64,000 nucleotides of DNA, from the sequence record MG770228.1; one strand, 5' to 3'. The position numbers were made by a program, and so were the translations under genes. This DNA is from Escherichia phage PMBT57. The notes under the pieces are model-generated. The model was given only the letters and a program-made list of their open reading frames with translations, was not told the origin of the DNA and made no database searches. Each line of letters begins with the position of its first letter. The stretch's first letter is position 1. Shown here in pieces: positions 32,497 to 34,167 of this stretch.

Positions 32497-34167
32497 TTAA
32501 GCGTTGGAGTTAATACCAACAACGGAAATACCTTCCGTGGTGTTAAATTCACTGAATTTAATCTGAACACGACCGACATCTACGATTAGAGAACCATAAG
32601 GTACTTTATAGATTCCGTGCATACCACGAGAGTACATGATACCCATACCTTCCAATGGGGCATCAAGTAAAGAACCATCTGGTTTAGCAATCTTCAATAC
32701 GAAGGAACTATCAGTATGACTCTTCAGTTGTGCCGTAAGCTGAGTACCATCGGTAGGTAACAGTAAGCTAAATGTAACAGTAGAATCTTTGATAAGAGTA
32801 CTGTGATATACCGTTAACTCACCAGATACTGTATCGAATGCACAATAAGTACCCGAATCCCAATCAGATACAGCAGCCCAACCACCACCTGAATATTTCA
32901 GTTGTGCTTCTGCTTCACCAACCATAACCAGTACAGCAGCCCCTGCCGTAACACTGGAGAATCGTGGGGTCAGTGGAGCCTTGCCTGTAGGGGTAATGAA
33001 AGTCATCACTGGTTCTACAGTCTGAAGGCTAGGTGGATACCCAAGAGTGATGCCACCATATGCATCTACATTCAGAGTCACTGCACTGGAAGGCATGATA
33101 CGGGTATTCACACCGGAGATTGCTTTAGCAGTTAGGTCTGCTTTAAAACGGAGTGGGGCAGTAACAGATACAGTAGCTGTATTGTCAGTAGTAGATGCAC
33201 CCATAATCAGGCCATCCAATGCCATTTGTTGACTAGGTGCTACCAACAAACCACTAACTTTACCGGCTTTATAATTAAGAACCAGGTTAGCTACTGCACC
33301 AGCAGTAGGGGCATTCATGTTGATGGAACCAGTAGCTAACGACCATACTCCACCAGTAGAGGTCAGTTTACCTGCTACAGCATAACCACCTTTGTCATTA
33401 CCCATAGTAATAACCTGACGGAGCATTGCACCTACTGTATTAGCTGCATAAGTCTGTGCCTGATTAAAGCCAATCAGACCTGCACCTTCAGCAGTAGCAT
33501 ACTTTTCATGGTCAGCAATGATTGTGTCTAGCTGCTCTGCAATGGTAACTAAGTCACCTAATCTGGCATGTACAGCCAGTAGTTCAGTCATGTGATTATC
33601 CAAATCAAGCAGTGCTGCCATATTGGTATTCACATTCTTAATCGTATTGATATTGGTGCTTACTGTATTAACAGCGTCAATGGAACCAGCAACGGTATTC
33701 ACGTTGGTAATGCTATTAGCAACAGTAATTACTTTATCAATTTGAGCAGAAACAATAATTACTTTAGCAATATCAGTTGCTACTGTATTAACTGCGTCAA
33801 TGTTAGAAGCTACAGTATTGATTGGAGTCAGGTTGTCATAGACCCTCAGCAATGCCTGAAGATTGTCATATAGACCAGTCAGTTTAGATAATTGATTGTA
33901 GAGTTCCTGTAACTTATCCAGATTATTATGAATAAGTTGTAGTTCATCTAGCTTAGTGTAGATAGCAGATAGCTCAGTTAACTTGTTATGGATAGCAAGT
34001 AGCTGAGTCATATTATCACTGACATTTTTAATAAAGGTCATTCGTAATGCTACGAACTTAACAACGTAGTAAGCATTACCAATCATCTTATCAACGATTG
34101 GGTCATTAAGTGTTTCGCAGCAATAACCTTCATTGGGGATAGTATTAAACGGGGTATGACCGCTCAT
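32497..34167 (-). CDS. tail fibre / appendage protein with internal sequence repeats
   Basis: Repeated N-T-V-x-x-I-D-A-V-N-T-V and L-x-x-L-Y-D/N-N-L motifs; position in tail module. Confidence 0.55.

Follow-up and report, generated by a model that had tools for sequence, protein, structure and literature searches.

Trimeric shafts of alpha-helical coiled-coil type, set between a virion anchor and a receptor-binding head, occur in phage fibre proteins such as T4 fibritin, T7 gp17 and DEV gp56. T4 fibritin and the T7 shaft are heptad-based. The appendage of coliphage N4 is likewise a trimer on the virion, with 12 appendages per virion, and the N-terminus of its protein, gp66, has been modelled on the neck together with the adaptor gp67 (PMC13434306). 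The present work concerns the gp66 gene of Escherichia phage PMBT57 (sequence record MG770228.1), which was analysed within a stretch of 64,000 nucleotides (nt), hereafter the window, and in particular an array of 17 contiguous ten-residue units (decads) in its product of 556 amino acids (aa). The array resembles the fibres named above in its position between anchor and head and in belonging to a trimer, and it is predicted to be helical with a regular hydrophobic seam. Its register, however, is ten residues with three core positions (3.33 residues per turn) instead of heptads (3.5) or hendecads (3.67). The same core spacing (7+3 = 10 residues) is found in the stammers of trimeric coiled coils, such as the Actinobacillus OMP100 stalk, but known stammers are isolated discontinuities (Hartmann et al. 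2009; Hartmann et al. 2016, PMC4786415), whereas 17 to >25 decads follow one another uninterrupted in gp66 and its relatives. PF25296 and the DotG/IcmE-type repeats also share the ten-residue period and differ from gp66 in their hydrophobic pattern. We consider the array to be a structural repeat of 17-18 units at the protein level, most likely forming a trimeric helical shaft in gp66, and not a DNA element; the probability of this interpretation is put at about 0.7.

The identity of the gene is well defined. At the nucleotide level it is 97.5% identical to N4 gp66, 99.4% to the gene of phage VEc25 and 96.8-99.4% to those of 14 Escherichia phages of the genus Enquatrovirus, in each case over the full length. 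The protein equals N4 gp66 in length and differs from it by nine substitutions (98.4% aa identity). In a PDB sequence search it was found to be the '60 kDa protein' of entries 9LC0, 9YF4 and 9YF5, and it matches phrog_29955, 'appendage', over residues 1-556 of 556 (E = 0). With gp67, gp65 and gp68 as neighbours in both phages, no substantive difference from N4 gp66 is apparent. The gene had been labelled a tail-fibre gene from its sequence alone. The label is correct, the product being the side fibre ('appendage', gp66) of an N4-type podovirus.

The periodicity of the protein was assessed by autocorrelation of the mean BLOSUM62 score, with 1000 shuffles as control. A strong signal was obtained at lag 10 (z = 12.9) and again at lags 20, 30 and 40 (z = 9.1, 7.4 and 8.7, respectively). 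At lag 5 the autocorrelation was negative (z = -3.2), and in the rest of gp66 (aa 226-556) no periodicity was detected (maximum z = 2.1). The basic period is thus 10 aa, or 30 nt, with the unit pattern xx[VIL]xxx[LIM]xx[LVI]. When the array is written in rows of ten, column 3 is V, I or L, column 7 is L, I or M and column 10 is L, V or I in 17/17 units. These aliphatic positions are spaced 4-3-3, giving three per ten residues (10/3 = 3.33). In the hydrophobicity spectrum the dominant peak lies at exactly 3.33 residues; its power is 324, whereas 500 shuffles gave at most 139. A single hydrophobic phase extends from aa 39 to 216. A heptad organisation (3.5 per turn) failed the test, given the z of 2.8 at lag 7 and the position of the spectral peak.

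At the DNA level the same period is seen in a weaker form, since it is the protein pattern that constrains the sequence. Identity at lag 30 is 51% (z = 10, codon-shuffle control) and at lag 120 it is 45% (z = 6.8). Tandem Repeats Finder, run on 32000-36000 with a minimum score of 30, reported nothing in the gene because the DNA copies are too diverged, and the periodicity is therefore demonstrated by autocorrelation. The degenerate repeats that the sequence-only reading had noticed in this gene are, by this self-comparison, real and far beyond chance. Its limits for them, 33560-34010, were slightly narrow, as the array occupies 33520-34029. The motif N-T-V-x-x-I-D-A-V that it described is present, with one x more than was written, for three variable residues separate NTV from IDAV. 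Two 21-mers had also been placed about 120 nt apart. The pair exists at a spacing of exactly 120 nt (ACTGTATTAAC(A/T)GCGTCAATG, at 33662-33682 and 33782-33802), but the basic period is 30 nt. No other match occurs in the window at <=3 mismatches, and none was found in 100 shuffles. The two copies belong to units 8 and 12, the most similar pair of units (23/30 nt and 8/10 aa identical).

Both the 4-3-3 spacing and the peak at 3.33 residues are characteristic of an amphipathic helix that carries a regular seam, of decad (10/3) and not heptad (7/2) type. Structure prediction was consistent with this. The monomer of aa 1-235 was modelled with AlphaFold2 from a 21-sequence alignment, giving a mean predicted local distance difference test (pLDDT) score of 71.6, values of 71-85 over residues 30-230 and a predicted template modelling (pTM) score of 0.27. 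The predicted helices (23-71, 73-111, 113-201 and 203-223) are almost continuous from residue 23 to 223. The full-length model, from an 11-sequence alignment, was poor (pLDDT 37.8), yet there too the array was helical. The coiled coil, which had been proposed as one alternative for structure prediction, is accordingly favoured by the seam and the AlphaFold2 helix together. In one decad-bearing relative the chain terminates with a fibritin foldon, which mediates trimerisation. From these features the array is predicted to be helical, and we infer that three chains pack as a decad coiled coil that serves as a spacer, and estimate its length from the number of residues.

Several points weigh against this interpretation. 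In the N4 tail maps only the N-terminal ~70-90 residues of gp66 have been modelled (PMC13434306; 9LC0). With the N-terminal model, Foldseek retrieved 9LC0 only, with gp66 chains of 91 and 69 modelled residues, so the deposited structures show no more than the first ~4 decads; with the full-length model the matches were meaningless (all E > 0.7). The solved structure thus ends at about residue 91, and the assignment of helix beyond it comes from a monomer model whose confidence is moderate (pTM 0.27). Moreover, this model superposes poorly on the ~90 solved residues (root-mean-square deviation 16 Å), and the N-terminal part, at least, therefore deviates from a simple straight helix. In units 8-13 beta-branched residues and Asn are abundant, and the Chou-Fasman propensities favour neither helix nor strand. 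Isolated decads in coiled coils are absorbed by short 3-10 segments, and coiled-coil theory treats 10/3 as the lowest periodicity that can be reached (Hartmann et al. 2016, PMC4786415). The real geometry may therefore differ from that of a textbook coiled coil. Finally, the receptor-binding role of the head and its NGR ligand are only presumed in the literature (PMC13434306, PMC12892993).

Other explanations of the periodicity were weighed against the helical shaft. That it arises by chance or as a by-product of biased composition has in its favour only the low identity of the units in DNA and the failure of Tandem Repeats Finder to report them. The z values for protein (12.9) and codon-controlled DNA (10), the constancy of residue class in three columns over 17 units and the retention of the same register in hundreds of homologues make this explanation practically negligible. 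It is unlikely, too, that the decads fold as a beta-solenoid or in the manner of leucine-rich repeats (LRRs), as in decapeptide or pentapeptide repeats of the DotG type or the 20-residue LRRs of bacterial effectors. Such a fold would suit the abundance of V, I, T and N in units 8-13. Pfam does contain a decapeptide repeat family, PF25296, one decad relative weakly matches designed beta-solenoids (E = 0.02-0.5), and weak matches to LRR effectors are obtained, with YopM at E = 0.0055, SspH2 and IpaH, along with a match to NF011917 at 21 bits. The last lies far under its cut-off of 1243 and the PDB matches extend over E = 0.0055-0.6, so that the test for bacterial LRRs of 20-22 residues (LxxLxLxxNxL) failed, with sub-threshold matches only and no Pfam LRR. 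Nor did gp66 and four phage relatives match PF25296, pentapeptide or LRR families in a Pfam scan at E <= 1. The pentapeptide type of beta-helix lacks both a profile match and a five-residue sub-period, the autocorrelation at lag 5 being negative, and the signal at lag 20 falls below that at lag 10. The 4-3-3 spacing and the peak at 3.33 mark an amphipathic helix and not alternating strands, AlphaFold2 gives helix, and breaks of +4 residues in the hydrophobic phase of long relatives (see below) fit helical logic.

Two further explanations concern the DNA. The sequence-only reading had proposed that the repeats drive recombination and length variation, with the near-repeats as substrates for slippage or homologous recombination in a hot spot that varies the length of the fibre and hence host range. 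The recurrence of the 21-mer at 120 nt agrees with such a role, as does the fact that Schitoviridae genera differ in the array, mainly in steps of 10 and 20 aa. The number of units is ~13-14 in JWAlpha, 16 in Ea9-2, 17 in N4 and Axy10 and 24 in phiEaP8, and the gaps between genera comprise clean blocks of 10 and 20 residues as well as larger ones that are not multiples of ten. Variation in array length is, however, visible between genera only. The comparison of related phages that had been suggested as a check gave a gene of exactly 1671 nt in all 14 Enquatrovirus relatives. Base by base, six alleles from this genus show no insertion or deletion, and their nine variable residues in the array avoid columns 3, 7 and 10. 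N4, Achromobacter phage Axy10 and Pseudomonas phage inbricus, which represent two subfamilies, align through the array free of gaps; in the alignment of residues 1-300, inbricus has one decad fewer. DNA identity between units is ~43% on average, mostly 30-60% and 77% in the best pair, and no exact direct repeat within the array is longer than 12 nt. For amino acids shared by two units, the codon is also the same in 104/290 cases, against 116 expected from the codon usage of the gene. Shared codons are not in excess, so nothing points to recent duplication or gene conversion. It is the C-terminal head, and not the repeat, that is swapped from phage to phage. As a variable-number contingency locus the array thus failed on the Tandem Repeats Finder result, on unit identity and on constant length. 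On recent time scales, at least, it is no hot spot of recombination; for these the proposal is largely refuted, and overall it is very improbable. A fairly recent duplication of four units (8-11 giving 12-15), in an array that is still growing, could also explain the near-repeat. In its favour are the similarity of units 8 and 12, the extension of their match to 50 nt at 76% identity and the z at lag 40 aa, which slightly exceeds that at lag 30. The pairs that follow are weak in DNA (9 and 13, 60%; 10 and 14, 43%; 11 and 15, 53%), and codon sharing across the array does not rise above expectation. Since the arrays of Axy10 and inbricus align with that of N4 without gaps, any four-unit duplication would predate the split of the two subfamilies. 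A recent event of this kind is hence unlikely, and a protein-level repeat accounts better for the near-repeat.

One allele of the gene deserves separate mention. In BEU5, the most divergent allele, 16 of the 53 nt differences from the window, together with six aa changes, fall within units 8-13 (gene nt 360-540, window 33628-33808). Intragenic gene conversion was considered for this patch and rejected, as the changes are scattered point substitutions with no insertion or deletion and no clear donor unit. The patch was possibly imported from a more distant relative.

The anchor and the decads (aa 1 to ~215-270) are common to 'appendage', tail-spike and exopolysaccharide (EPS) depolymerase proteins of other Schitoviridae genera, the C-termini of which are unrelated. 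Among the phages that encode such proteins are Achromobacter phages Axy10, Axy11, JWAlpha and phiAxp-3, Pseudomonas phage inbricus and Erwinia phages Ea9-2 and phiEaP8. A word-index homology search with aa 1-235 returned seven proteins only. HMMER was then applied with aa 47-216 as the query against 1.84 billion cluster representatives, and 387 protein clusters were retrieved at E <= 1e-3, of which 58 were at E <= 1e-10. Among the best 142 of the 387 matches, 137 contain at least eight decads in register (median 18), and uninterrupted runs reach 27 decads in phage-type proteins. The module is accordingly widespread in phage fibres and spikes. In decad-bearing proteins the decads are joined with T7-fibre N-terminal, C1q, tail collar, pectate-lyase and Tail_spike_N domains, and also with endosialidase-chaperone (S74), GDSL esterase and fibritin-foldon domains. 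The T7 tail N-terminal domain PF03906 (Phage_T7_tail) is absent from gp66 and present in other decad-bearing fibres. No model recognising the phage decads was found in Pfam or NCBIfam, and PDB sequence searches with gp66 and two long decad fibres retrieved no solved decad array except gp66.

In long metagenomic fibres of the NTVAxNIAxV type, the array is interrupted near segments resembling DLNE(A/P)VSEIE, which shift the hydrophobic phase by +4 residues. This shift was seen at all four phase changes observed, in proteins P0004 (aa 161-510) and P0029 (aa 220-431). Judged from sequence, it is stutter-like, which adds another indirect argument for helical packing, and it could periodically relieve over-winding.

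Not every match to the decads is a relative. P0202, a HECT-domain protein of 1111 aa, consists in part of ~39 near-perfect KLKYIAYSIT decapeptides and was retrieved with the gp66 decads at E = 9.5e-8. It is the sole protein among those retrieved that matches PF25296, and it was rejected as an unrelated repeat that shares the period only. It serves as a caution for profile searches with the decad module. Weak sub-threshold matches to the decads were also seen in PDB and NCBIfam for YopM, SspH2, IpaH, rotavirus VP4, SbcC and SpiroCoCo coiled-coil models. The LRR, VP4, SbcC and SpiroCoCo matches are artefacts of periodic leucines and could mislead automatic annotation.

The head of gp66 has a relative in another phage family. 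Its residues 294-536 (window 32557-33288, minus strand) share 28.9% identity (E = 2e-21) with the C-terminus of a protein of 551 aa encoded by Aeromonas phage vB_AdhaP_R1 (Autographiviridae, 42 kb; locus L007, 1646-3301), and the N-terminal half of that protein is unrelated to gp66. The receptor-binding head thus looks like a part that has been exchanged between phage families. A shared N-terminal part with swapped heads is the usual modular design of receptor-binding proteins.

The layout of gp66 and the coordinates of the features are collected in Table 1. In the PDB sequence search, residues 2-51 proved similar to the N-terminus of a 'tail fiber protein' of known structure (9d80_D). Residues 37-46 are already in decad register and may be counted as a cryptic eighteenth unit, with which the array reaches 34059. 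Within the array an A-B-A arrangement is seen, in which Leu-rich units with Tyr or His in column 4 (units 2-7 and 15-17) flank the NTVAxxIxxV units (8-13). Each Leu-rich block is opened by a KNVxxNMxxL unit (units 1 and 14), and these two are 60% identical in aa sequence. The NTVAxxIxxV type prevails in the decad shafts of metagenomic phage fibres. Beyond the array, tblastn matches of the Achromobacter, Pseudomonas and Erwinia phages end at aa 213-274. The GAGLIGF segment of the junction (aa ~222-256, window 33400-33505, minus strand) aligns with segments of the type 'GS.kVGF....RTVqdkLre', which stand directly before unrelated C-terminal domains in appendage and depolymerase proteins of Achromobacter phages. 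The segment is likely to be a conserved module boundary.

The neighbouring genes follow the order gp68-gp67-gp66-gp65 of the N4 annotation, with open reading frames of 544, 236, 556 and 1382 aa in the window. The stop codon of gp67 overlaps the start codon of gp66 (ATGA, window 34164-34167), and the genomes of OLB145, 3HA13 and Jura are annotated with the same 4-nt overlap. This overlap suggests translational coupling of gp67 and gp66.

Table 1. Features of the gp66 gene, its decad array and its neighbours (window positions; ORF, open reading frame)
Feature	Position	Strand	Basis or remark
gp68, large terminase, 544 aa	34881-36515		
gp67, adaptor, 236 aa	34164-34874		
gp66 appendage (side fibre) gene, 556 aa, N4-type coliphage	32497..34167	-	ORF, nt identity, PDB, PHROG, synteny
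N-terminal anchor, aa 1-46	34030..34167	-	conserved among Schitoviridae appendage and tailspike proteins
Decad array, aa 47-216: 17 units of 10 aa / 30 nt in direct succession	33520..34029	-	row layout, autocorrelation, hydrophobicity, AlphaFold2
Units 1-7, aa 47-116: one KNVxxNMxxL unit, then Leu-rich units with Tyr/His in column 4	33820..34029	-	
Units 8-13, aa 117-176: NTVAxxIxxV type	33640..33819	-	
Units 14-17, aa 177-216: second KNVxxNMxxL unit, then Leu-rich units	33520..33639	-	
Near-repeat copy 2 (unit 8 and neighbouring bases)	33770..33819	.	core 21-mer 33782-33802
Near-repeat copy 1 (unit 12 and neighbouring bases)	33650..33699	.	76% identity over 50 nt, spacing 120 nt; core 33662-33682
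Junction, aa 217-293, including GAGLIGF segment	33289..33519	-	homology to other Schitoviridae appendages stops
C-terminal beta-rich head, aa 294-556	32500..33288	-	presumed receptor-binding domain, exchangeable module
gp65, sheath and receptor-binding protein, 1382 aa	28307-32455		

The following mechanism is proposed. Three gp66 chains would form a long alpha-helical, coiled-coil-like shaft that joins the neck anchor to the head. The N-terminal ~45 residues would plug the trimer into the neck beside gp67. If fully helical, the shaft would measure ~22-27 nm (~170-180 residues at a rise of 1.5 Å per residue, minus the shortening by supercoiling), and the repeat would set the reach and stiffness of the fibre. 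The beta-rich head (aa ~294-556) would make a reversible first contact with a surface polysaccharide. The ligand of the head is presumed to be the NGR glycan (PMC13434306, PMC12892993). The weak periodicity of the DNA, including the 120-nt near-repeat, would then be the same amino-acid pattern encoded repeatedly. The array may have arisen by ancient duplications of the unit and would now be kept by purifying selection on the three core columns; changes in length would be rare and mostly of whole decads, with the register preserved.

The gene itself is known and belongs to a well-studied kind of phage, so its biology offers little surprise; what is new is the account given of the repeat. In the literature searched, excluding the paper that accompanies 9LC0, no description was found of decads in continuous arrays, whether in phage fibres or in other proteins, nor, in the N4 structure papers, of the decad register of gp66. 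It is tentatively suggested, with the balance of likelihood still on the other side, that uninterrupted runs of 17 to >25 decads represent a distinct, structurally undescribed type of trimeric helical fibre held at 10/3, a portable shaft of adjustable length. If so, its geometry would be either very tightly left-handed or a regular alternation of alpha and 3-10 segments. Whether coiled-coil periodicity has the lower limit assumed for it would be tested by the structure of a decad segment, and the metagenomic annotation of phage receptor-binding proteins would gain from a decad profile. The boundaries within gp66 (1-46, 47-216, 217-293 and 294-556) are natural cut points for chimeric receptor-binding proteins in N4-like therapeutic phages. 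For N4-type phages the repeat is to be seen as a stable spacer and not as a variable region. More widely, if decad runs do form such a fibre, the module would serve phage fibres and spikes of many unrelated kinds, and N4 gp66 would be a prototype amenable to experiment.

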